Notes: a model not told the origin generated them from the letters alone. A stretch of DNA of 64,000 nucleotides from Opitutia bacterium (GCA_947474365.1 CANJIU010000009.1:64457-128456); one strand, 5' to 3'; counted from the stretch's first letter, positions 4,304-31,031 are shown. Made by a program: numbers and translations.

Positions 4304-6403
4304 TCAGGGCATTTCATACAACTCGACCAAAGCGACGCCGGTCGTGTTTCCCACGCCGCTAACCTGTGCGGTGTAGGCGCCCGGGGCGAGGTTGATGATG
4401 AGTGCGGCATCCTGACTCCCCGCCGTCAGGGCAAACGCGCCCACTTGCGCGGAGCCACTCGTGATGGCCGCCGCATCGGGCGACCCACTCCACCCCGCAT
4501 TGCTTGCCAGCACGTTCGTCCCGGAACTCACGGTCAGCGTCGGCCGCGCGAGCGCACCCGTGACGCCGAATTGCGTCAATCCTGGGCCGGTACCGCGAAT
4601 GAGGACCCGTTTCGGCACGTTTCCCGTAATAAAAAAACCGGTGATGAGGGCGCCGTCGCCTGTGCCGGCCGTCGCACGGATCGCGGTATTGACGATCCGC
4701 TGATCGCGCGGAATTTCTCCGATGGTCGCATCATAGACCTCCACCATGCTGACACCGCTCACGCCACCCTGACCCGTGACCACTGCGGTGTAGGTCCCTG
4801 GCTCAAGGTCCAGCATGAGCGCCGCGTCGCGACTGTTATTCGCCAGAGGAAAGGCTCCAACCCGCGCGGCCGCCGCTGCGATTGCGGCAGAGGAAGCACC
4901 ACCCGCGGCGGGTGTGCCCCAATCATTGCCGACGGCCACGGACGTCGCGCCGCGGAAAACCTCCAAACGCGCGGCACTGAGCACGCCGCCAACTCCGAAC
5001 GTCGCAAGGGTCGGGCCGATCGCGCGCACGAGCACCGGCTTGGGCCGCGTCCCCGAAATGACAAAGCCTGCGATCAAAGTGTTCGCCGCCGTGCCCGTCA
5101 GGCTTCGCGTGGAGATGTTGATCAATTTGTCGAGATCCGAGCGGACATCACTGCTCCCCACAAAGGTCGCCGCCGCTCCGTTCGCCGGCGTCACGGTCGC
5201 TGAAAAAATCGACGTCGCGGCAGAAATCGTGCCCACCACGCGCGCATTTGCGGCCGTCGAGAGACTGACCACGCCGTCGGTGGAAACGGTGCCGACGCCA
5301 CCATCGGCCGTCGCACCCATAACGTTCACCAACAGAACCTCACCCTTGGCGCTCACGATCGCGTAGCCCTGCGCCGATCCGCCCACCATCCGCGTCGGAA
5401 AAAAGCCCGCCACCGCCGCCGTCACGCCGGTCCGGGCCGCAGCAGGTGCGATGAACGCGAGATTGATTCCGGAAACCGAGCCCTTGAGCGTGCCATCGGG
5501 CCCAATGCCTCCTTCGACGCGACCGCCGCCCTCGAGGTCCGCGGCAAATGAACCGTCGCCCGCCACCATGACGTCGCGACCGACGAGAGCCGTCCGCGTC
5601 GCATTCGCGAAACCCAGAAACACCCCGGTGCGATCTGTCCGAATGATGAGTGAGAAGGCGCCACCTTCGCTGCCAAAGGCACCAAAGTAAGTACCGTCAA
5701 TTGGAGCCGGACGGACGGTAAGCAACGCGGAGCTGGACGCAACGCTGCCGGCAACGTTGGTCACCACCACCTGATACGAACCAGAAACCGTGGCGTTCAC
5801 CACGTTGAGCGAGGCCGACGTGGCACCTGCAACGGCGATACCGTCCTTCTGCCATTGATACGACAGAGGTCCGGTACCAGAGGCGGCAACCGTCAACGTG
5901 GTCGACCCGCCGAAATCCACCGACTGCGCCACGGGCTGGGTCACAACGGCCGGAGCCTCGGGCTTGAAAACCGGCGTGACGGTCAGGACGGCAGTCGAAC
6001 TGGTCACCGAGCCATCGTTGTTCGAAATGGAAACCGTGTACGTCGCCGCATCGTTCTGCGCCGTTTTCTCCAGCGTGAGCGTCGGACTCTGCGCCCCCGC
6101 AATCACGGCCCCATTCTTGAACCACTGATAGAGGGGAAACTTGCCCGTCGCCGTAACCTCGAACGTCACACCGGCGCCTTCTACGACCGTGCGGCTGATC
6201 GGCTGCGCGGTGATTACCGGCGTTACCTGCGGTCCGCTACCATCGCCGCCACCCCGGCCATTGCCACCCCCCGAGCCGTTGCCTCCGTGACCACCCGCAC
6301 CACCGGAGACCGGAACCGTCTGGGCACTCACCCCAAACGTGACCAAGAAAAGAAGAGCGAGCCCACGGAAGAGGCGCCAAGGGGACGACAACGTGGGTCT
6401 CAT
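4304..6403 (-). CDS. Secreted multi-domain protein: Gly-rich linker, two Ig-like (I-set-type) domains and two ~120-aa C-terminal tandem repeats
   Basis: Start chosen at MRPTLSSPWRLFRGLALLFLVTFGVSAQ (signal peptide), ATG at 6403. Gly-rich linker GGAGGHGGNGSGGGNGRGGGDGSG. Two Ig-like domains with YQW(Q/F)K(D/N)G motifs. Two diverged repeats, each ending ...PG(A/T)YTA.V(S/T)G..G.(T/S)GV.(L/M)VE(L/V)Y. The upstream part of the six-frame ORF (to 6889) overlaps an intergenic repeat and is rejected. Confidence 0.75.
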   Translation of the reverse strand: MRPTLSSPWRLFRGLALLFLVTFGVSAQTVPVSGGAGGHGGNGSGGGNGRGGGDGSGPQVTPVITAQPISRTVVEGAGVTFEVTATGKFPLYQWFKNGAVIAGAQSPTLTLEKTAQNDAATYTVSISNNDGSVTSSTAVLTVTPVFKPEAPAVVTQPVAQSVDFGGSTTLTVAASGTGPLSYQWQKDGIAVAGATSASLNVVNATVSGSYQVVVTNVAGSVASSSALLTVRPAPIDGTYFGAFGSEGGAFSLIIRTDRTGVFLGFANATRTALVGRDVMVAGDGSFAADLEGGGRVEGGIGPDGTLKGSVSGINLAFIAPAAARTGVTAAVAGFFPTRMVGGSAQGYAIVSAKGEVLLVNVMGATADGGVGTVSTDGVVSLSTAANARVVGTISAATSIFSATVTPANGAAATFVGSSDVRSDLDKLINISTRSLTGTAANTLIAGFVISGTRPKPVLVRAIGPTLATFGVGGVLSAARLEVFRGATSVAVGNDWGTPAAGGASSAAIAAAAARVGAFPLANNSRDAALMLDLEPGTYTAVVTGQGGVSGVSMVEVYDATIGEIPRDQRIVNTAIRATAGTGDGALITGFFITGNVPKRVLIRGTGPGLTQFGVTGALARPTLTVSSGTNVLASNAGWSGSPDAAAITSGSAQVGAFALTAGSQDAALIINLAPGAYTAQVSGVGNTTGVALVELYEMP

Positions 6404-6500
6404 GAACGGAACAGGAGCATCGCGGGACGTTAAAACCGATTTATCCGAGGTCAAGGGAGGCCCCCTGCTGTCGTCTTTCTCCCTAATCCGTAGAAATTCA

Positions 6501-6640
6501 GTCGAGAGCGGAGAGCCGGGAGCTGAGAGCAAAACCAAACGGTGAACTTCGGTTTCGGGTCGGGCGGCGCGCGTGTCTGGTCTCGAGATTGGGCTCTCAG
6601 CTCTTCGCTCCGAGCTCTCGACTGCATGGTCGCGGCTAAT
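6501..6640. repeat. R1 copy 1 plus an imperfect inverted-repeat partner (gtcgagagc..agctgagagc / gctctcagct..gctctcgac), forming a long hairpin between the SGNH hydrolase stop and the Ig-like protein start
   Basis: Read directly from the sequence. Arms at 6501-6530 and 6593-6622. Confidence 0.65.
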
Positions 6641-7418
6641 CCGCCAGCCACCGCGCCAGCGGCAATTGCAGCCGCCGGATTTCCTGCGCTGCGAGTCTCG
6701 CAACCTGCCTAGCCCCGAACTCGCAATAATGGGTATTGTCCGCCGCACCTTTCGGATAGGCGTCATACTTGCCGGCCGGCAAATACAGGTGAAGCGCCTT
6801 GGAACCCTCCGGGCCGAGCGTGCACTCCAATTCCTCGGTCCGGGCGCGCAGATCAAGCAGCGGCACGTCCATCGCCGCAGCGACTTCACGGGTCACGTCC
6901 TGCCATTCGGACGGCGCGACCTCAAACCGGCCCGCCTCGCTCCAGCTTCGCCGCACGACAGAAGTGGCCAGCAGCGGAAACGCACCCTTGGCCCGCACTT
7001 CACGGATGAACCGCTCGAGATTCGCGCGATACGAACCACGAGGTTCGGTGTAACGTGAGGGATCATCCACCTTCGTGTCGTTCGTGCCGAACTGGATGAT
7101 CAGATAATCACCTTTGGCGATCTCGCCGATCACTTTGGCCCAAAGCCCCTGGTCGATGAAACTCTTGCTGCTCCGGCCGCTGCGTCCGTGGTTTTGTACC
7201 ATCGTCGCGTCCTTGAAATGCGCCGGGAACACTTGCCCCCATCCCACCAGGACGCGTTCCGGCGGATAGCTCGCCATCGTCGAGCCCCCAATCAGAAAAA
7301 CGCGCGGCGGCAATTCGACCGCGGCCATCCCGATCGTCGGAAACGCCCAAATACAAGCGACGCCTGCAAGCAGTCTCGCGAGCCATAGCCTGCGCAGGAA
7401 ATTAAGCGGGCGAGTCAT
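6636..7418 (-). CDS. SGNH/GDSL hydrolase, rhamnogalacturonan acetylesterase-like (CE12-like)
   Basis: N-terminal signal peptide. FLIGGSTMASY...GWGQVF aligns with the RGAE block YLAGDSTMA...GWGEYL. Length 260 aa. Confidence 0.8.
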   Translation of the reverse strand: MTRPLNFLRRLWLARLLAGVACIWAFPTIGMAAVELPPRVFLIGGSTMASYPPERVLVGWGQVFPAHFKDATMVQNHGRSGRSSKSFIDQGLWAKVIGEIAKGDYLIIQFGTNDTKVDDPSRYTEPRGSYRANLERFIREVRAKGAFPLLATSVVRRSWSEAGRFEVAPSEWQDVTREVAAAMDVPLLDLRARTEELECTLGPEGSKALHLYLPAGKYDAYPKGAADNTHYCEFGARQVARLAAQEIRRLQLPLARWLAD

Positions 7419-7440: not shown

Positions 7441-10400
7441 TCAACGCGCCGAGGCGGGAATCAACCGGATTCCACGTACGTCGGCGAGTTCCCGTTTCAA
7501 GGGCCCATCCGGCTTCAGCTGAATGCGGTTCACGCCGCTGCGCAACACGAGCCGGCCGGAGGGTTGCTCGCGAAACGTCTCGTAGTCGCCCGTCGACGGC
7601 ACCTCGCCCCGCGTCCGGCTTCCCTCGGTTTCCACCACGAAGAAATCGCCTGCCGAATCATCGTCCGCCGCGAGATTCACGCGCACCTCGAAGGTTCCAC
7701 CGGACTCAAGCTCCACCGTCCACTCCGCGATGTCGGTGGCGACTGTCCAGGGAGCCAGCACGTCAAACACCTGCCGGTAGCCGAGCTTTTGCGCGTAGAC
7801 CACCGCCTTGCCGGCGGGAAGCAGAATCTCCCCCGACGGTATCGGCCGAAGCACGACAGCGGGGCCGGCGCCAGTTCCCTCTTTCTGGCCCGGAACGGCC
7901 GTGAGTTCCCCCGCGGTCCAGGGCAAGGTGCGGCCGCCGGTTTCGCGCCGGATGCCCGCAATCAACTGCGGCTCGACCACGCCCGCATCGTTCCCCCAGG
8001 CACGCCGGACATAACTGATGACCGCCGCCATCTTGTCGTCGTCGAGTATCCCGCTGGCGCCGAGGGCGGGCATGCTCAGATTCCACGTCTGTCCGCCGAC
8101 CGAAATGGGGCCGTACAGGCCGTGCATCACGATACGAGCGACCCGCTCGACGGGCCCCTTGACCCACTCGCTCGCGGCCAGTGAGGGCGCCACATTGGGA
8201 GCACCGCCACCGTGCCCCTGATGACAGGCAGAACAAATCGCGGTGTAGATTTCACGTCCCTCCTCCACGCGTTTCCTTTCCAGCGCGGAGAGCACCCGGG
8301 CTCCGGTATCCGCACTCGTCTCCGCGACCGCTCCCGGCCACGCAAACACCTCCAAGGCACGGTAGGCGACCTGGCGGAGCGAAGCGTCCGAGCCCCGCGC
8401 GAGGCGGAGCAGTACCGCCGGCTCCCGGGTTAGAGGCGCAGGCTTGACGCGTCGGCTCCCGGTTGGCGCGAACGTGGTCAGCGCCTCCAGCAATGCCTCG
8501 TGGTGCCAGGGCGCGGAACGTCCCGCCGTTTCCAACAGGGCGATCAGGGCGTCGTTGCGCGGCGCATCTCCGGCCTCCAGCACGCAGTGCACGGCCAGAC
8601 TGGCGATCCGCCGCTGCCGTGCGCCGAAGGTTGACTGATCGGCAAACGTGCGGAGGAGCGCCTGGAGAAATTCCAGCTCGCGCCCTTCCCTCCCCGACAG
8701 CGCAGCGACATCGAAGAGCGTATCCTCGCCGGCAATCGCCAGCGCCAACAGCAACGGCAGCGACTCCGGCAGCACCATCGCACTCGCCGTCAGCGTCGCC
8801 TGCAACCGGACGGACTCACTCCGATCCCGCCGGGCGGCGCCCAGTTTCGCGAGCAGGGTGGATTGTTCCGTTGCCGCAAGTCCTCGTTCACTCAGACGGA
8901 TCGCGGCTGCACGCACGCGATCATCGCCATCGCCCATCGCGGCGAATTTTGTCGCGGGGTCGAGGGCGCCGAGGCCGTCGAGAGCCCACAGGGCGTGCAA
9001 CCGCCCGAGCGGCGCGGAACCACGGCGTGCCTGTTCCCGCAATGGCGGCACCGCGCTGGGATCGCGCCGTTCCACCAGCAGGCGCTGCGCCGTCAGCCGC
9101 CACCAGCCCGTGGCGTCGCCGAGATGGGTGATCAACTCCGAGGAGCCGGCCTGATCGAGCCTGGGGCGGCCCCGTTCCACCGGGCGATCGTCACGCACGA
9201 CGCGGTAGAGGCGGCCCATGTCCCTGCCGGTATCAAGCTTTCGATCACGCACCTGATCGCTGATCCACGGCACCATGAAAATTACGTGCTCGATGATCCC
9301 GTGGTACATGTCGGCGACGTAGAGCGCCCCGTCGGGACCGACGCGCGCGTTGACAGGCCGGAAGCGTTCGTCGCTCGACGCCAGAAATTCCTGCTCGGCC
9401 GGATAAAAGCGCGTCGCATTCGGCCGGATGCCGCCGCTAAGCCGCAACCGGCCGATGAGATTGCCCCCGGCCTCGGGGACGAACACATTGCCCCGAGCCT
9501 CCTCGCCCAGCTGCTCTCCGTCGTAGTAACACGTGCCGGATGCGATGGTGTAGGTCTGCAGGCGGGCGTCGTCCCGCAGTTCCAAGGCACCGAGCGTGAT
9601 CCCCGGCGTCACGCGGATCGGAAAGACCTCCTGCGCCTCAGTGGCGATGTTCACGCTCACGCCCCCGGAACCGCGGCCACCGCGCGCCACAACCCGCGCG
9701 AGGTTGTGATTGCGCACCAGATACTCCGCCGGAATCAAATCGGCGTGCAGCGCTGAGTTCTGGTGGCAGGTCATGAACCGCCCCGTCTCGTCAAACGTGA
9801 CACCGAATTGCCCATGGCGAACCGTCTCCTCCTCGATGAATTTCCCCTCGAGCCAGCGGTGCCGTTTCGTCGAATCGGCACTGTGCAGCCAGTTGTCGAT
9901 GCCGTAGCGAAGCCCGTTCGCGGTGTGCTGCGGATTGCCCGCAACCCCCATCGTCCCCACCTCGGTGCGTCGATCACAGCGCAGGTCGCCGTCGGTGTCC
10001 TCACAAAACCAGACCTTGGGTGGCTCCTGCACCAGCACGCCTCCCTTCACAAAGGTGAGCGACCGTGGCATCACCAGCCGGTCGAGGAAAACCGTGCTCT
10101 TGTCAGCGCGGCCATCGCCATCGGTATCCTCCAGCACCACGACGCGGCAGATCGGATCGCCCTCGCCGCCACCCTTGATGTCGCGCATGTAGCCCTGGTA
10201 CTCGACGACCCAGATGCGGCCCGCCGGGTCAAATTCAAAGAAAATCGGATTCTGCACCATTGGCTCGGCCGCCACGAGTTCGACCCGATAGCCCGGCGCC
10301 ACCCGGAAACTGCGCAACGCCTCCTCCGGCGAAAGCGGCGGCGCCGGCGGCACCTTGATGCGCGAGAGGAGATCGGCGCCCTTTTCCCATTGCGCCGTTC

Positions 10401-10533
10401 CGGTCAGCATCGAGGGCGGCCGCGCCCGTGGGCGCTCGGGTGGCACCGACTGCGCTCGCGCGGGCCAACCCGCGGCGGCGAGACATAGCCCCGCGAGGAC
10501 GCAATACTCCGGCAAGAAACCGCGGCGCGTCAT
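7441..10533 (-). CDS. PVC-type membrane-bound dehydrogenase domain protein fused to HEAT repeats and a cytochrome c (CxxCH) heme-binding domain
   Basis: 1030 aa. Signal peptide MTRRGFLPEYCVLAGLCLAAAGWPARA. N-terminal soluble quinoprotein/sorbosone-dehydrogenase-like beta-propeller region. HEAT-like helical repeats. CSACHQGHGGG cytochrome c motif near the C-terminus. The architecture matches the Pirellula/Verrucomicrobium-type heme-binding and membrane-bound dehydrogenase families. Confidence 0.8.
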   Translation of the reverse strand: MTRRGFLPEYCVLAGLCLAAAGWPARAQSVPPERPRARPPSMLTGTAQWEKGADLLSRIKVPPAPPLSPEEALRSFRVAPGYRVELVAAEPMVQNPIFFEFDPAGRIWVVEYQGYMRDIKGGGEGDPICRVVVLEDTDGDGRADKSTVFLDRLVMPRSLTFVKGGVLVQEPPKVWFCEDTDGDLRCDRRTEVGTMGVAGNPQHTANGLRYGIDNWLHSADSTKRHRWLEGKFIEEETVRHGQFGVTFDETGRFMTCHQNSALHADLIPAEYLVRNHNLARVVARGGRGSGGVSVNIATEAQEVFPIRVTPGITLGALELRDDARLQTYTIASGTCYYDGEQLGEEARGNVFVPEAGGNLIGRLRLSGGIRPNATRFYPAEQEFLASSDERFRPVNARVGPDGALYVADMYHGIIEHVIFMVPWISDQVRDRKLDTGRDMGRLYRVVRDDRPVERGRPRLDQAGSSELITHLGDATGWWRLTAQRLLVERRDPSAVPPLREQARRGSAPLGRLHALWALDGLGALDPATKFAAMGDGDDRVRAAAIRLSERGLAATEQSTLLAKLGAARRDRSESVRLQATLTASAMVLPESLPLLLALAIAGEDTLFDVAALSGREGRELEFLQALLRTFADQSTFGARQRRIASLAVHCVLEAGDAPRNDALIALLETAGRSAPWHHEALLEALTTFAPTGSRRVKPAPLTREPAVLLRLARGSDASLRQVAYRALEVFAWPGAVAETSADTGARVLSALERKRVEEGREIYTAICSACHQGHGGGAPNVAPSLAASEWVKGPVERVARIVMHGLYGPISVGGQTWNLSMPALGASGILDDDKMAAVISYVRRAWGNDAGVVEPQLIAGIRRETGGRTLPWTAGELTAVPGQKEGTGAGPAVVLRPIPSGEILLPAGKAVVYAQKLGYRQVFDVLAPWTVATDIAEWTVELESGGTFEVRVNLAADDDSAGDFFVVETEGSRTRGEVPSTGDYETFREQPSGRLVLRSGVNRIQLKPDGPLKRELADVRGIRLIPASAR

Positions 10534-10540
10534 AGCTCAC

Positions 10541-13513
10541 TCAAAACCGCGCCTGGATGCCGGTCGAAATCGAGCGGGGGAACAGATTCGTCTGCGCACG
10601 GCGGTCCGCGCGATAGAGGCCCAGATATCGGCCGCGGTTCTCCTCGAAGAGATTAATCACGTCCATGAAGACATTGAGGTTTCTCGAAATCTTGAAGCGG
10701 GTGAAGAAATCGAATTGCTGGCGCTGCCCGACAAACTCCGAACTTGAGGGATCCGCGACGTTGAGCGTGAAGAGATGCGTCGAGGAAAAGTTCCACATCA
10801 GGCGCAGATCCCAGCGGCCGTAATTGTAGCTCACGCCGGCGTTGCCGGAGCGCGGGCGCATCTGGGTGAGGTAGTTCTTGAACGGCAGGTTGGTGACGAC
10901 GCCGTTGTAGTCGCCGGCGCTCGTAAGCACGGTCCAGTTGCCGGTCACGCCGAGGCCGCGCAGCAGCCCAGGGAGAAAGCTCAATTGCTGCGCGTAATTG
11001 AACTCCAGGCCCTGCACCGTGCCGTCGCCGGCGTTGACGCGGGTGTTCCCGGTCCAGCCCGCGTACGGGCTCAGGTCGAGGCCGAACTCGTTCCCGACAA
11101 TCTTGAACGAAGTGGCGGTGACGTAGTTCTTGATCTCCTTGCGAAACGCGCCGAGCGACACGACACCCACGGGCTTGAAGTAATATTCCACGCTCAGGTC
11201 GTAGTTGCTCGAGATCTGCGGTTTCAGCGCCGGATTGGAAAACGTGACCGCCTGGCCGAGGTCGTTGACCGAGAAACGCCCCACCAGATCAGAGAGCCGC
11301 GGCCGGCCGATCGTCGTGGAATAGTTGGCGCGGAACGTGAGATGCGCGACCGGCTCGTAGCGAAACTGGAGGTTGGGGAAAAAGTAGCCCTCGTCCGCCT
11401 CGACGGTCTTGAAGGTGGAGAAGCGAGCCTCGGGCGCGGTCACGCGAGTGTTTTCAAAGTAGGAGGTGAGCCGCGCCTGCGTCAGTTCATAGCGCAGTCC
11501 GGCGGTCATCTGGAGATTTTGCAGCCAGCGCACTTCACTTTGCAGGTAGCCGGCAGGGATGGTTTCCCGGGTGCGATAGTCGTTCTGCAGCGAGTTCGTC
11601 ACTGAGGTGTCGAGGTTCGCCGTGGTGGCGGGAAAATACGGAGCGTTGTAGGCAAACTGCACGGCGGGTCGCGCCGGGTTGCCGGACGGCAGATAACGGA
11701 TACCCGAATCCTTGAAGATCGCCTTGGTGTTGATCAGGGGTGTCGCCGGGTAGTGCCCGTCGACCCAGCCGTAGGTAAAGCTGGCGTCGCGGTATTGCGG
11801 GTAGCTGCCGGCCCCAAAGGTGCCGGTGATGGAGTCGGCGTCCCGGTCGCGATCCTCCTGCCGGATGCGGAAGCCCGTCTTGAATTTCACGGGAAACTTC
11901 CATTGGGCGAAATCCTTCGTCACATCGAGCTTGGCGCTCTTGATTTTGTCACTCGCATCCTCGTGGGTCCCGGTGAGCGCAATCGACAGCATGTTCGTGA
12001 ACTGATCCGCCGGCGGAGGGACCGCGCCGCCAAACGTGAGCGTCGGAAACTCCTTGCTCGCGCGGCGGTCATACGTGAAGGAAAAGAAATTGTTGCTGCG
12101 GCCGGTCGCCGACATCCGGTCGAGCGGACGGAAGGAGTCGGAATACGACAGGTCCCACGCGATCTTCACGATGCCGAGGTTGTGTTTGCCGTTGAGCTGA
12201 AAGCCCCACGTGTCGCTCGGCGTGTAGCGGAAATCGCGCTGGGACCGGTAGCTCGCGCGGCTGAAGACCCAGTAGTCCGTGGTCGACTGGGCGGTGTCGA
12301 TGACGTTGTTGTCGGTGTACTGCGGGCGAACCTGCTCCATGACATTGCGGAAGCGGGTCCAGCCGGCGGCAAACGTGAGGGAGGAGTCGCCCGACAGGCG
12401 GTAATCGAGCTTGGTCTGCAGGTTGGCCCGCTTGTTCATGTGGTACTCCTGGTCGGCGTAGACCAGCTGGCGGCCCGCGGTGGGGCTCGTGTAATTCCAG
12501 TTGGTCGCGAAGGTCGTGCGGATCGTCTGCAACCCGTCACCGACCTCTTGATACGCGCCGGTGACCGACACGCCGAGCTTCCGCCCGAAGAGCAGGAACA
12601 CATCCGAATAATCGATCGAGAAATGAGGGAAGATCGTCTTCCCGCTGCCCGAGGGGTCAAGGTGCCGGCCCATCGTCTCGTTGTAGGCGGTGGCGGCGTT
12701 GAGGATGATGGTGCGCCCGGTGCGGTCGAAACCGCTTCGCGTGCGCAGATTGACCACCCCGCCGAGCGACTCCGCGTCCATGTCGGCCGTCGGGGTCTTG
12801 ATGACCTCGACGCTTTCGATGGAATTCGACGGGAGTCCGCTGACCACCTGGACGCGCGAGTCGGGATTGGCGGCGGCGAACCGCGTGCCGTCCATCGTGA
12901 CCGTCGTGAATTCAGGCGAGAGTCCGCGCACCATGATCGCGTCGACCGCGGAACCGCCGTACTCGCCGACGATGCCCGGCAGCCGCTGGAGGAAGGTGCC
13001 GAGGTCGCCCTTCGCGATGTTGCCGTAGGCGTCGGTCGAAATCGTGTTCCCCACCGTGAGCGCCTTTTCCTGCCGCGCGATCGCGGCCGCGTTGCCCTCG
13101 CGCACCGCGGTGACCGCAAACGACTCCATCTTGTAGACGTCGGAGGTGAGGTTGAAGTCCTGCACCGCCGTGGCACCGGAGCCAATCTCGACGACGCGCG
13201 TCATCGGATCGAGACCCGGGTAGACGACCCGCACGGTGAGCGATCCCGCGCCGAGCCCCCGGATCGCGAATGAGCCGTCGCGCTCCGTGGCTACACTGCG
13301 ACCGGCGCCCACGATTTCCACGCTGGCGTCCTCGAGCGACGCGCCGGTGGCCTGGTTGGAAACGCGGCCCTGCAGCACCGCGGTGCCCGCGGCCGCGGCG
13401 GTCGAAGCGCCCGAAGCCTTCGGTCCGGGCTCAGCCGCGGGAAGCAGCGAAGCGCCCAGCAGGGCGAAAAACAACGGCAGTACCAGGCGATGATGGGTCA
13501 GCGAAACGTTCAT
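10541..13513 (-). CDS. TonB-dependent receptor with N-terminal carboxypeptidase-regulatory-like domain
   Basis: 990 aa. Signal peptide. CarbopepD_reg-like N-terminus (VLQGRVSNQATGASLEDASVEIVGAGRSVATERDGSF). Plug and beta-barrel. C-terminal aromatic residue (…GIQARF). Its stop lies 8 bp upstream of the start of the next gene (7441..10533). Confidence 0.9.
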   Translation of the reverse strand: MNVSLTHHRLVLPLFFALLGASLLPAAEPGPKASGASTAAAAGTAVLQGRVSNQATGASLEDASVEIVGAGRSVATERDGSFAIRGLGAGSLTVRVVYPGLDPMTRVVEIGSGATAVQDFNLTSDVYKMESFAVTAVREGNAAAIARQEKALTVGNTISTDAYGNIAKGDLGTFLQRLPGIVGEYGGSAVDAIMVRGLSPEFTTVTMDGTRFAAANPDSRVQVVSGLPSNSIESVEVIKTPTADMDAESLGGVVNLRTRSGFDRTGRTIILNAATAYNETMGRHLDPSGSGKTIFPHFSIDYSDVFLLFGRKLGVSVTGAYQEVGDGLQTIRTTFATNWNYTSPTAGRQLVYADQEYHMNKRANLQTKLDYRLSGDSSLTFAAGWTRFRNVMEQVRPQYTDNNVIDTAQSTTDYWVFSRASYRSQRDFRYTPSDTWGFQLNGKHNLGIVKIAWDLSYSDSFRPLDRMSATGRSNNFFSFTYDRRASKEFPTLTFGGAVPPPADQFTNMLSIALTGTHEDASDKIKSAKLDVTKDFAQWKFPVKFKTGFRIRQEDRDRDADSITGTFGAGSYPQYRDASFTYGWVDGHYPATPLINTKAIFKDSGIRYLPSGNPARPAVQFAYNAPYFPATTANLDTSVTNSLQNDYRTRETIPAGYLQSEVRWLQNLQMTAGLRYELTQARLTSYFENTRVTAPEARFSTFKTVEADEGYFFPNLQFRYEPVAHLTFRANYSTTIGRPRLSDLVGRFSVNDLGQAVTFSNPALKPQISSNYDLSVEYYFKPVGVVSLGAFRKEIKNYVTATSFKIVGNEFGLDLSPYAGWTGNTRVNAGDGTVQGLEFNYAQQLSFLPGLLRGLGVTGNWTVLTSAGDYNGVVTNLPFKNYLTQMRPRSGNAGVSYNYGRWDLRLMWNFSSTHLFTLNVADPSSSEFVGQRQQFDFFTRFKISRNLNVFMDVINLFEENRGRYLGLYRADRRAQTNLFPRSISTGIQARF

Positions 13514-16788: not shown

Positions 16789-17149
16789 CTGCTAGTTTGC
16801 AACAAATAGACGCGGAACGTCCGCAAGCGGATGAGGCATGCCGATTGGAATATCGGGAAGCGGGTCCGCGGACGCCGGGAGCCGGAGTCTTGGATCCCGG
16901 CGAACATCAATCGGCATGACCGGTCCGCTGCCCCGCGCCTGGTTTCGACGACGTGGGCGTCGCCGCTCCAGCAGGGCGCAGCAGAAATAGGGAGTAAGTC
17001 CGAGAGGGACGCCGACGCTGCCGATGTCACTCACGAGGTCGCCCCCCTCACCCCATGAGGTTCAAGAAGTCGCCCGGGATGAAAATGAAGGACCGCTTTG
17101 GCGTAAACGAGGGCACCCCTTCTTACGACCGCAGACCGACCGAAATCGG

Positions 17150-17235
17150 ACGGGCGAGACCGCCCTGCCGGCTCCATGCTATGTCTATGCTATGTCCATG
17201 CTGCGTCCCTTTATGGCGATTTCCGGCGACCAGCC
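17150..17235. repeat. R2 copy 1, in the 890-bp non-coding region upstream of glnD
   Basis: See 27050-27135. Confidence 0.75.
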
Positions 17236-17680
17236 CGGCGATCCCGGAGCCGTTGCCGAGACCAGATGCCGTAAAACACTCCATGGGCATGGCTTAGGTC
17301 GCCGGCGGCGCCGCGAGGGCCCACCTGTGCTCCCCTATTTTTCTGACTGAAAGCAGGTTAGCGGGCGGCATCCGTTCCTCCAAAGGAAGCGATTCCAAGT
17401 GCCGCCAACGGCGAGCGGGCAACGCGATCACCCCGTGGGAGTCGAAAAGGTAAGGGACGACTCGCTCTTTGAGCGGTCCGGGCTGCTTGTCGTGCGGACG
17501 GACGATTTCGGACGCCCCGGAGGTGCGTCCCTACCATCCAGAACTCGTTTTCGATGCATTAAGAGGGGCGCCACGCCCCCGTTTGCCGGCGACCTACCGC
17601 CCCGCGGTTGCGGGATTCCCAACTTGGGCGTTGAATGTTCGACGTCCGCCGTTCGAAGTTGCACGTTCGTCGTCCCACCC

Positions 17681-26841: not shown

Positions 26842-26907
26842 GAAGGGAGCTTAGATGGGGTTGCCCTTCATGCGGGATACTGGGTCGAACCGGATCAGAT
26901 AGACGGG

Positions 26908-27015
26908 CCGGCCACGACCGGGACAGCCCGTGAATTGCTGCCCGCTGCAGCCGCGATCGGGACTATTTGTGAGCCGAGACTAACAATTCACGAAATAACC
27001 CGTTTGGCAGGCATC
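26908..27015. repeat. ~100-bp repeat unit A, with internal inverted repeat ccgtgaattg...caattcacg. Copy 1 of 2.
   Basis: Shares about 80% identity with 27690-27815: ..cccgtgaattgctgcccgctgc..ctaacaattcacgaaataacccgtttggcaggc vs ..tccgtgaattgctagcccgctgc..ctaacaattcacggatagacccttttggcaggc. Confidence 0.7.
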
Positions 27016-27049
27016 CTTTTGCCCCCGGAACGGCCGGAATCGAACGGAC

Positions 27050-27135
27050 GCGACCGCCCTGCCGGCTCCTTGCCGTGTCCATGCCGTGTCCTTGCCGTGT
27101 CCCTTCTGGGCGTTTTCCGGCTGCCGGTCCGGTTT
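27050..27135. repeat. ~90-bp dispersed intergenic repeat (family R2), copy 2. Contains three 10-bp tandem units (cWtgcYRtgtc).
   Basis: cgaccgccctgccggctccttgccgtgtccatgccgtgtccttgccgtgtcccttctgggcg matches 17150-17235 (gagaccgccctgccggctccatgctatgtctatgctatgtccatgctgcgtcccttt) at about 80%. Confidence 0.75.
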
Positions 27136-27212
27136 CCGGCGCCCCCGTTCTGGCCGAACCGCCACACGGCGAGTGCCGCCAGCCGGGCGACCGAGAGCCG
27201 CGGGGCTATGAT

Positions 27213-27268
27213 GATTGGGCTCTCAGCTCTTCGCTCTGAGCTATCGTCTGGCATCGTTCCGGCTCAGG
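27213..27268. repeat. ~50-bp dispersed intergenic repeat (family R1), copy 2
   Basis: gattgggctctcagctcttcgctctgagctatcgtctggcatcg matches 6586-6640 (gattgggctctcagctcttcgctccgagctctcgactgcatgg). Confidence 0.75.
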
Positions 27269-27391
27269 CAACGACCTGCAATCAGCGGATTGGCCTCGTT
27301 GGGCCGGCCGTGAAATCCGGGGTCGGGCGTCCTCTGGCGCCCTTTCGGACCTCCTCTCGTCCTTCACTACCGGTATACTGCCGGGATACTC

Positions 27392-27435
27392 ATCACCCAC
27401 AGATTACCCACACATCACCCGCACATCACCCACAG
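27392..27435. repeat. Tandem array of 4 x 11 bp (atcacccacag attacccacac atcacccgcac atcacccacag)
   Basis: Read directly from the sequence. Confidence 0.8.
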
Positions 27436-27689
27436 CGGTCGTTTCCCGCCGGGTGGAGCCGCCTCGCGCCCAACCGGGCCGCGCAGCACTGCTTCCCCCC
27501 GCATCCGGCAACCGCTCCGCGGCGGCAGCGCCGACGCCGTGACGCCATGTCGCTTTAACCTACCCACCACTATAACCTGCCTCGCCGCGCCGAGGAAGGG
27601 AAAGTTCGGCCCGAGCGTGCAAGTCGTTGCCGCGATCGAACCGTAGTACTTTTTTTGCCCCGCGCTCCAAACACGAAGCACGGGGCTGG

Positions 27690-27815
27690 CGACCGGCCCG
27701 ACCGGCGACCGGCCCGACCGGGTCAGTCCGTGAATTGCTAGCCCGCTGCCGCGACCGGAGCTCTTTGTGGCCATGGACTAACAATTCACGGATAGACCCT
27801 TTTGGCAGGCCGCAT
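27690..27815. repeat. Repeat unit A copy 2 of 2. Preceded by a tandem duplication of cgaccggcccgaccgg.
   Basis: See 26908-27015. Confidence 0.7.
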
Positions 27816-27905
27816 GGATGGCAGGCCGGGTTGCCGCAACGTCACGACTCCGTCGAGCGCATCCCGCCACGGGTTGCGCGCTGGAACGTTTCTAAAAGTC
27901 GCCGC

Positions 27906-27980
27906 AAACCCACGCGACGGGGCGTCTCGTACCCAGGGAATCGGATTCCGAACGGATCGAACTGGAGCGGCGACGCGCCC
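27906..27980. repeat. ~75-bp direct repeat (family R5), copy 1
   Basis: aaacccacgcgacggggcgtctcgtacccagggaatcggattccgaacggatcgaactggagcggcgacgcgcccg vs 28015-28092. Blocks aaacccacgcgac, ccggattccgaaYggatc and actggMgcggcga are conserved. Confidence 0.65.
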
Positions 27981-28014
27981 GATGACGCCCCAGCAAGTTG
28001 CGCAATAGCATAAC

Positions 28015-28092
28015 AAACCCACGCGACAGTGACGTTGCGTCCCCAGAAACCGGATTCCGAATGGATCAGACTGGCGCGGCGATGTCCGCCCG
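28015..28092. repeat. ~75-bp direct repeat (family R5), copy 2. Contains a perfect 9-bp stem hairpin ctggcgcgg/ccgcgccag.
   Basis: aaacccacgcgacagtgacgttgcgtccccagaaaccggattccgaatggatcagactggcgcggcgatgtccgcccgcgccag. Ends 20 bp before the helicase stop codon. Confidence 0.65.
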
Positions 28093-28111
28093 CGCCAGCC
28101 TCGAAAAGCAC

Positions 28112-30601: not shown

Positions 30602-31031
30602 CTCGCAGCCCGGGACATTCGGCGCGCTCGGGGACGAAATCATCCATCAAACCGCCCCGCCAACGGCACTTACGCGACCTACGTAACAGCGATGCTTGTA
30701 CGCGGTGCCGCGACACGCATTCTCCGACGCGTTCTTAGGATTTACACGCCTAAGCTGCCGCCGCTTCCTCGGCGACCAGCACGGGGGACCCAATTTTCCG
30801 TCGCCAGCACGAGCAATCGCGCAGGCGGCGGGCGGGGCGAACGGACGCGGGCAACCGCGGCCAAGGTGACTTCCTAGCACCGAGCCCGTCAGCTAACCTC
30901 GTCGGCAATGGGAAGGGTGATCCACTAGAGCGCCGCATTTGCGGATGTCTCCAAGGTCGCTCCAACGCAACCGCACCGTCGTGCACGTCGGGGAACACCT
31001 GTCGTGCGGGCGGCGCTTTCCAGACATCGCC

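Follow-up and report, generated by a model that had tools for sequence, protein, structure and literature searches.

We found that the palindromic sequence between a GDSL/CE12-type esterase gene and the gene of an Ig-like secreted protein is probably a non-autonomous, MITE-like palindromic insertion of 145-148 bp, a member of a previously undescribed family in the Opitutaceae (Verrucomicrobiota). It lies within the 64,000 nucleotides that were analysed as a whole (the window), which hold this full-length copy, here called element A, and a second copy, B. Several of the features by which MITEs are recognised were found: non-coding DNA shorter than about 300 bp, inverted repeats, a flanking duplication and presence/absence polymorphism. 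A first-pass annotation of the window had marked a repeat and a hairpin at 6501-6640; both are there, but the whole unit runs from 6488 to 6635 and the repeat that flanks it extends to 6643 (Table 1).

Gene annotation bore out the context described in that annotation, in which a TonB-dependent receptor, a dehydrogenase, the esterase and the Ig-like protein are encoded one after another on the minus strand. Homologues of the esterase are named rhamnogalacturonan acetylesterase, and their hosts are Opitutaceae, Horticoccus, Opitutus and Didemnitutus. The identical insertion of element A was present in three independent assemblies: besides the 138-kb metagenome contig from which the window comes (ena:ERZ27277814:k141_2902848), two others hold the locus, with a single SNP over 8.1 kb and no difference in the spacer. 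Contig L132, the closest relative with these genes, has the same order of TBDR, DUF7133, esterase and Ig-like gene and an esterase that is 90% identical, but lacks the element: its esterase/Ig-like spacer measures 64 nt, compared with 232 nt in the window. When the two were aligned (alignment A1), L132 displayed a single clean gap of 151 nt, with flanks that are 90% identical next to the esterase and 82% identical towards the spacer and the Ig-like gene. In the window, two copies of CGGATTAG that match at 8/8 positions enclose the extra DNA (6488/6491-6635). Judged from sequence, this 8-bp bracketing repeat is the trace of an insertion that duplicated its target site. Whether 5, 6 or 8 bp were duplicated depends on 2 nt of the L132 alignment and on the assignment of the terminal CGG, and element A accordingly measures 145 nt (6491-6635) if the CGG is counted with the duplication; comparison across the family points to ATTAG, 5 nt, as a possible duplicated core. 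Which way the event went, insertion here or precise loss in L132, rests on more distant relatives: the esterase loci of L133, L135, L145 and L146 have neither the element nor heptamer arrays, and are only weak outgroups because their spacers or gene orders differ.

Table 1. Positions (counted from the first letter of the window) of element A, its parts, copy B and neighbouring genes, followed by the pentamers that flank eight copies of the family, each read in the element's forward orientation.
Feature	Position	Strand	Remarks
TonB-dependent receptor (TBDR) gene	10541-13513	minus	
DUF7133/cytochrome c protein gene	7441-10533	minus	
GDSL/CE12-type esterase gene	6636-7418	minus	upstream of element A; stop TAG at 6636-6638
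Direct repeat CGGATTAG, upstream copy	6636-6643	minus	with the esterase stop TAG
Element A, full-length palindromic insertion element	6488-6635	minus	148 nt; absent as one block from L132
5' arm (element-forward)	6587-6635	minus	tip CCGCGACCATGCAGTCGAGAG, heptamer array, inner junction GAGAGCCCAATC; counterpart at 27213-27262
5'-arm heptamers	6593-6620		GCTCTCA GCTCTTC GCTCCGA GCTCTCG, read on the plus strand
Inter-arm stretch	6531-6592	minus	62 nt, with inner junctions CCAATC and CCGTTTGGTTTT
3'-arm heptamers	6503-6530	minus	GCTCTCA GCTCCCG GCTCTCC GCTCTCG; TRF period 7, 4.0 copies
3' tip	6488-6502	minus	ACTGAATTTCTACGG
Direct repeat CGGATTAG, downstream copy	6483-6490	minus	target-site-duplication-like
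Block conserved with L132	6427-6454	minus	TTGACC (6449-6454), 16-nt spacer, TAACGT (6427-6432); alignment A1
Ig-like secreted protein gene	4304-6403	minus	downstream of element A; signal peptide; start at 6403
Copy B	27183-27262	minus	5' arm with four heptamers, 14-nt loop, one 3' heptamer, then GGTCGCCCGG
Flanking pentamers, element A			ATTAG / ATTAG, 5/5
Flanking pentamers, L137			CCTGA / CCTGA, 5/5
Flanking pentamers, L140			CTAAG / CTGAG, 4/5
Flanking pentamers, L098			CTAAG / CCAAG, 4/5
Flanking pentamers, copy B			CTGAG (27263-27267) / CTGGC (27178-27182), 4/5
Flanking pentamers, L144			CTTAT / CTTGG, 3/5
Flanking pentamers, L138			CTAAG / GCTAC, 0/5
Flanking pentamers, L139			TGTTA / CCCAA, 1/5

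The element had been placed inside an operon. All four genes do lie on the minus strand, but the operon itself is uncertain: the block at 6427-6454 that is conserved with L132 could be the Ig-like gene's own promoter, although the consensus promoter scan did not call it, and if so, element A would sit between transcription units and not inside an operon. The start of the Ig-like gene also differs between the two relatives (6401-6426 in the window, 5760-5790 in L132). In L132 the start is an ATG seven codons upstream, whereas in the window a 1-nt indel closes that frame and a new ATG stands at 6403.

The internal organisation of element A is that of two inverted arms with a spacer between them. 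The first-pass annotation had reported a dispersed repeat (R1) at 6586-6640 and 27213-27268, which repeat search and alignment confirmed, and an inverted partner across about 60 nt, which we found as a pair of 35-nt segments (6496-6530 and 6593-6627) that are 80% complementary and 62 nt apart; the CCG/CGG tips of the element pair as well. The arms were thus present as described, but it had gone unnoticed that each consists of four degenerate heptamers in tandem (GCTCNNN / NNNGAGC), with a conserved GCTC core. A scan for at least three GCTCNNN units returned exactly three arrays in the 64 kb (6503-6530, 6593-6620 and 27219-27246), compared with 0.02 per shuffled window, and the window holds exactly two occurrences of the 20-mer GGGCTCTCAGCTCTTCGCTC (6591 and 27217), with 0 expected from 100 shuffles. 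Element A is non-coding, the sole ORF that spans it being a mechanical 861-aa read-through of a GC-rich frame. It had no match when the whole window was searched against Rfam 15 at the gathering threshold, and a search of 6380-6700 at a permissive E-value matched only a model of plant miRNA precursors, with 15.7 bits where the gathering score is 184. The only match in the window at the gathering threshold was a c-di-AMP (ydaO/yuaA) riboswitch elsewhere, at 30737-30922 on the plus strand (56.1 bits, E = 2.6e-10).

Copy B shares with element A a direct repeat (6587-6624 and 27213-27250) of 92% identity. In a gapped alignment of 6587-6643 with 27213-27270, 47/57 positions are identical, including all of the last 24. 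Copy B did not exhibit significant structure (z = 0.17), and our reading of its sequence is that it would be an internally deleted member of the family. It lies downstream of a DeaD helicase gene, in an apparently non-coding spacer of about 1.27 kb (26842-28111) that separates this gene from the following ORF. The spacer is rich in other repeats: 11-nt tandem repeats (27067-27102; 27391-27434), a duplication of 16 nt (27688-27721), and a 127-nt repeat shared with 17112-17238. Another dispersed repeat there (26915-27012 and 27715-27810, 77-92% identical) contains the inverted pair GTCCGTGAATTG ... CAATTCACGGA, and similar sequence occurs on a different Opitutaceae-type contig (L146:4780-5010), in the spacer after an esterase gene. 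This repeat might represent a second family of palindromic elements, or else a structured RNA.

Outside the window, we found seven more full copies at unrelated loci, all on Opitutaceae-type contigs (L098, L137, L138, L139, L140, L142 and L144). L098, from an Opitutaceae MAG, was found by BLAST of element A through 23 identical bases that run from the 3' array into unique sequence. It has tips as in element A, with 11 heptamers in its 5' arm and 2 in its 3' arm, and adjoins an unrelated DUF429 gene. The other six came from a metagenome scan with the 21-mer GTTTGGTTTTGCTCTCAGCTC, taken from the inner junction, which returned nine loci; the complete architecture was present in 6/9, including features that the 21-mer does not specify: a 5' array about 100 nt upstream, the inner junction that follows this array, the loop, and both the 5' and the 3' tips. 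Element A and the copies in L140, L138 and L098 have in common the 5' tip consensus CCG..ATGC[AC]GT[CT]GAGAG, a 22-nt segment at the 3' tip of element A (CTCTCGACTGAATTTCTACGG) is identical in the L140 copy, and the CCGTTTGGTTTT junction is common to element A and other members. From these copies the layout of the family in forward orientation can be described: at the 5' end, a tip CCG..ATGCAGTYGAGAG, a degenerate NGAGAGC array of 3-11 units and the junction GAGAGC-CCRATC; in the middle, a loop that measures about 50 nt and exists in two sequence sub-types; and at the 3' end, the junction CCGTTTGGTTTT, an inverted GCTCTCN array of 2-8 units and the tip CTCRACTGMATTTCTMCGG. Across the family an arm holds 2-11 heptamers, and L138 has a near-perfect terminal inverted repeat of 20 nt. 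L140 was assigned to the Opitutaceae from its YebC homologues. Three copies lie on three contigs of a single microbial-mat assembly with similar coverage, and two copies lie in the 64-kb window. The junction 21-mer had no match in viral contigs, no copies beyond those found by pattern emerged when the element, its loops and its tips were compared by BLAST with every fetched locus, and no transposase adjoined any of the family members examined. In the full-text literature we found no account of this heptamer-armed family in Opitutaceae or Verrucomicrobia.

The sites occupied by these copies lie close to gene ends. Element A ends 0 nt from the esterase stop, the L137 copy fits exactly between the stops of convergent genes for an InlB-repeat protein and an M16 peptidase, the L139 copy ends 2 nt from a stop and the L140 copy 14 nt from the yebC stop; at L098 the upstream gene overlaps the element by 31 nt. 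With respect to the gene upstream, element A and the copies in L098 and L137 are in forward orientation, while those in L139 and L140 are reversed. When the pentamers flanking each copy were compared (Table 1), 26/40 positions matched, against about 30% expected (p about 5e-6), a figure that calls for caution because the boundaries were set by eye and post hoc. The CTNAG-like flanks are moreover nearly palindromic and resemble degenerate heptamers, so that in some copies they may belong to the element and not to a duplication; in some unrelated heptamer hairpins, CTAAG/CTTAG-like flanks appear to be part of the palindrome itself. We infer from these flanks a preference for insertion at A/T-rich, CTNAG-like pentamers, which in a GC-rich genome would be clustered at stop codons. 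Seven Logan contigs from seven runs (L121-L127) all end at position 6550, in the hairpin loop and 30 nt past the 5' arm. This shared end would fit the entry of a k = 31 assembly into a stretch that is repeated elsewhere, for instance in copies with the same loop.

We folded the minus-strand transcript, as the first-pass annotation had proposed, and obtained the long hairpin that it anticipated: RNA of 6483-6643 folds at -65.7 kcal/mol (z = -4.46), with 0/200 shuffles as stable. Element A RNA alone folds at -64.4 kcal/mol and the whole 235-nt intergenic RNA at -87.8 kcal/mol (z = -2.6), and intact members of the family all fold strongly (z of -2.6 to -6.7). The single arms fold at -13.6 kcal/mol (5' arm, by local pairs) and -5.8 kcal/mol (3' arm, weak). 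A fold of this strength directly after a stop codon, followed on the transcribed strand by AAUUUCUA, whose U-tract is weak, could be a selected cis-regulatory RNA, either a terminator or attenuator after the esterase gene or a 3' stabiliser of mRNA of the REP/BIME kind, possibly co-opted. We consider such a selected role unlikely, even though family members often occupy stop-to-stop or stop-to-start spacers, and even though 6/8 copies carry a T-rich tail, ATTTCT, at the 3' end that has no A-rich counterpart in the 5' tip, an asymmetry that would fit terminator-like function. Against it stand the absence of the element from L132 and the reversed orientation of the L139 and L140 copies. In addition, arms of 35 bp with a 62-nt interior are far from a canonical terminator, and by inspection the mismatches between the arms do not have a G-U bias that favours either strand. 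A scan of 6200-6800 called neither a promoter nor a terminator. The same interval did not contain the combination of short GC-rich stem, 3-8 nt loop and U run that defines an intrinsic terminator.

The fate of the pairing could be followed at the spacer between yebC and a hydrolase gene, where L140 carries its copy. The element is kept at the same place in L147, L148 and L149, whose YebC proteins are 91-97% identical to that of L140, and is absent from L150-152. In L147-149 the heptamers are mutating (GAGAGC to GGGTGC or GATCGC) and a deletion in L148 has removed one end; folding at the orthologous site correspondingly gave z = -6.7 for L140, -1.3 for L147 and -0.1 for L149, a decay of pairing that also speaks against a selected hairpin. 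Together, the empty site in L132, the decay at the yebC site and the mixed orientation argue against a conserved attenuator, terminator or processing site. On these three grounds and the lack of any terminator-like call, we set aside both the intra-operon attenuator and the RNA-processing site, as selected functions, that had been suggested for this hairpin. The L150-152 lineage (86% identity in YebC) has unrelated sequence at the site with other palindromes, and in L150:3254-3584 long GC-rich palindromes can be seen by eye (for example GTTGTCTCGGGATCTTTGG ... CAAAGTCCAGAACACAAC). Different hairpin elements may fill the same yebC/hydrolase spacer in different lineages.

The heptamer arrays raise the question of whether the arms grew in place. 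According to such an account, element A would be a plain heptanucleotide microsatellite extended by slippage, its arms inverted by chance and its similarity to 27213 convergent. The arms are indeed period-7 arrays, (GCTCTCA)n arrays are widespread in many phyla, and heptamer simple repeats are over-represented in bacteria and form inverted pairs in Xanthomonas (PMC4692102). We regard this account as scarcely credible, however, as non-repetitive tips, junctions and loop segments are common to copies at unrelated loci and in different genomes, and the element as a whole is either there or missing, as a single block flanked by a duplication. The definition of a heptanucleotide simple repeat applies only to the arms and not to the whole element, and growth of a microsatellite in place was rejected on the shared unique tips and loops.

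The arrays could also be read as binding sites. Ribbon-helix-helix proteins of the omega/ParG type bind direct and inverted 7-bp heptads, and the strictly conserved GAGC core recurs here every 7 bp, in direct as well as inverted form; three heptads would correspond to two helical turns. Element A would then be an operator or a centromere-like site. We give this very little credence: there is no known candidate protein, copies are scattered after unrelated genes, unit numbers differ widely between copies, and decay of the arrays is seen at the orthologous yebC site.

Two inverted arms with a spacer, extragenic and placed after genes, also bring to mind a REPIN, that is, two inverted REP units mobilised by a RAYT (an IS200/IS605-type tyrosine transposase). 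Transposition of the IS200/IS605 type leaves no flanking direct repeats, whereas element A is flanked by them. CTAC occurs in the 3' tip of only 3/8 copies, GTAG in no 5' tip, and CGTC is absent; furthermore, a REP unit is an imperfect palindrome of 20-40 nt in its own right, whereas the arms here are heptamer arrays, and the 3' arm alone folds only weakly, as given above. Among the sequences that the analysis covered, no RAYT gene was seen. We therefore think a REPIN highly unlikely, in spite of the abundance of GTAG REPs reported for Opitutus terrae (PMC3733652), and the missing tag and the flanking duplication rule out a REP or REPIN in the strict sense. The REP-like element that had been proposed as a third possibility holds in so far as there is a dispersed family of palindromic extragenic elements, and fails on the lack of a conserved GTAG/CGTC tag and the presence of flanking direct repeats.

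The reading that we prefer, a non-autonomous palindromic insertion, would entail the following course of events. The element would have inserted immediately after the esterase stop, duplicating 5-8 bp of target (ATTAG / CGGATTAG), upstream of the conserved spacer that precedes the Ig-like gene; its mobilisation would have occurred in trans, by a putative transposase. Heptamer numbers would then drift, presumably by slippage, and copies would decay through mutation and internal deletion, as copy B appears to have done. If the hairpin acts on the esterase/Ig-like transcript at all, be it through partial termination, as a barrier to 3'-exonucleases or through RNase III cleavage, this would be a by-product. 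It follows that annotation as a conserved attenuator should be avoided for this hairpin, and that the spacer difference between close relatives would reflect a selfish insertion, any polar effect of which on the Ig-like gene would be strain-specific. A palindromic repeat family of the Opitutaceae that is defined by sequence can serve in repeat masking, in explaining assembly breaks and as a strain marker.

We also searched one genome per species with the degenerate pattern GCTCTCAGCTCNNNGCTCNNNGCT, which is too permissive and matched at least 119 loci; these matches brought to light that the arms are built of heptamers. Among the 119 matches listed, most are (GCTCTCA)n, in Acidobacteriota, Opitutaceae/Verrucomicrobiota, Gemmatimonadales and some cyanobacteria and gammaproteobacteria, and none is from the genome to which the window belongs. 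Within the same 119, 20 arrays have an inverted partner less than 250 nt away, compared with about 2 expected, and 2 have a separate direct partner; the purine-rich arm comes first in 15/20 of these inverted pairs, as it does in the window. In a Gemmatimonadales MAG (DASSOW010000431.1, L008:700-2130), an IS110-family transposase gene with the Pfam domains DEDD_Tnp_IS110 and Transposase_20 lies exactly between GAGAGC-type and inverted GCTCTC-type arrays. Some IS110-type elements are known to insert into REPs, and on its sequence context the insertion sequence in L008 looks as if it had inserted into the loop of a heptamer hairpin. The excess of inverted partners and L008 suggest, without establishing, a wider class of heptad-armed palindromes. 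That hairpins with GAGAGC/GCTCTC heptad arms form a mobile superfamily across phyla (Verrucomicrobiota, Acidobacteriota, Gemmatimonadota and others) is in our view doubtful, and quite improbable at present; a dedicated protein might recognise the heptads, and IS110-type recombinases might use the hairpins as insertion targets. If the superfamily were real, part of the bacterial excess of heptamer repeats would be carried by mobile elements and would not arise in place. Two further patterns were observed among the arrays. In the MAG UWPOB_VERRUCO2 (L002, L041, L071 and L119), perfect (GCTCTCA)n arrays of 3-8 units have conserved flanks, TCCGACCTCTCA ... GCTTCTTCC, which suggests a second dispersed element that carries heptamers. 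In five Opitutaceae-type loci (L003, L066, L067, L078 and L097), GCTCNNN arrays stop 10-25 nt short of an ATG that lies on their own strand, and in many cases they occupy the entire stop-to-start spacer, recalling the TAACTGA repeats of Beggiatoaceae.

Of the systems with which element A can be compared, Rho-independent terminators resemble it in having a hairpin right after a stop and a short U-containing tail (AAUUUCUA), but differ from a stem of about 35 bp with internal loops, in a family of mixed orientation, that is missing in L132. REPs are extragenic palindromes mostly downstream of coding regions, and REPINs are two inverted units with a spacer, with proposed roles in termination and mRNA stabilisation (PMC3733652, PMC3337134). 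Element A is likewise an extragenic palindrome of two inverted arms with a spacer, yet it is longer, does not have the conserved GTAG/CGTC tag and is flanked by direct repeats. The resemblance is of another kind in the MITEs of the Correia/NEMIS (Neisseria), ERIC/IRU (enterobacteria) and RUP (Streptococcus pneumoniae) families, which are 100-200 bp long and non-coding, fold as long RNA hairpins, vary between relatives, and are found in intergenic regions near gene ends, where they are co-transcribed with their neighbours. Element A is like them in size, in its inverted arms and in its short flanking duplication. Unlike them, it has arms made of degenerate heptamer arrays of 2-11 units, a strict inverted repeat that is subterminal, with tips of 8-11 nt that pair poorly, and a duplication of 5-8 bp with a CTNAG-like flavour in place of TA.

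The arms in turn resemble the intergenic heptamer repeats described from other bacteria. The degenerate (GGGAATC)n / (GGGANTN)n arrays of Xanthomonas and the GGGGAYT arrays of Nostoc are intergenic, and those of Xanthomonas mostly have four units, are conserved at positions 1-4 and 6 and in some cases form inverted pairs (PMC4692102), while the TAACTGA repeats of Beggiatoaceae are intergenic heptamers close to start codons (PMC4679880). The arrays of element A share with these and with the cyanobacterial STRR repeats degenerate heptamers with 4-5 conserved positions in about four units, an intergenic location, a length that varies between relatives, and occasional inverted stem-loop pairs. Such simple repeats have been described without unique ends, in contrast to the arrays reported here, which sit in a discrete element with an insertion footprint. 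Our finding thus joins two literatures that are usually separate, one on bacterial MITEs and REPs and one on the unexplained abundance of heptamer arrays between genes. Should the connection hold more generally, insertion footprints would offer a test of how such arrays originate.
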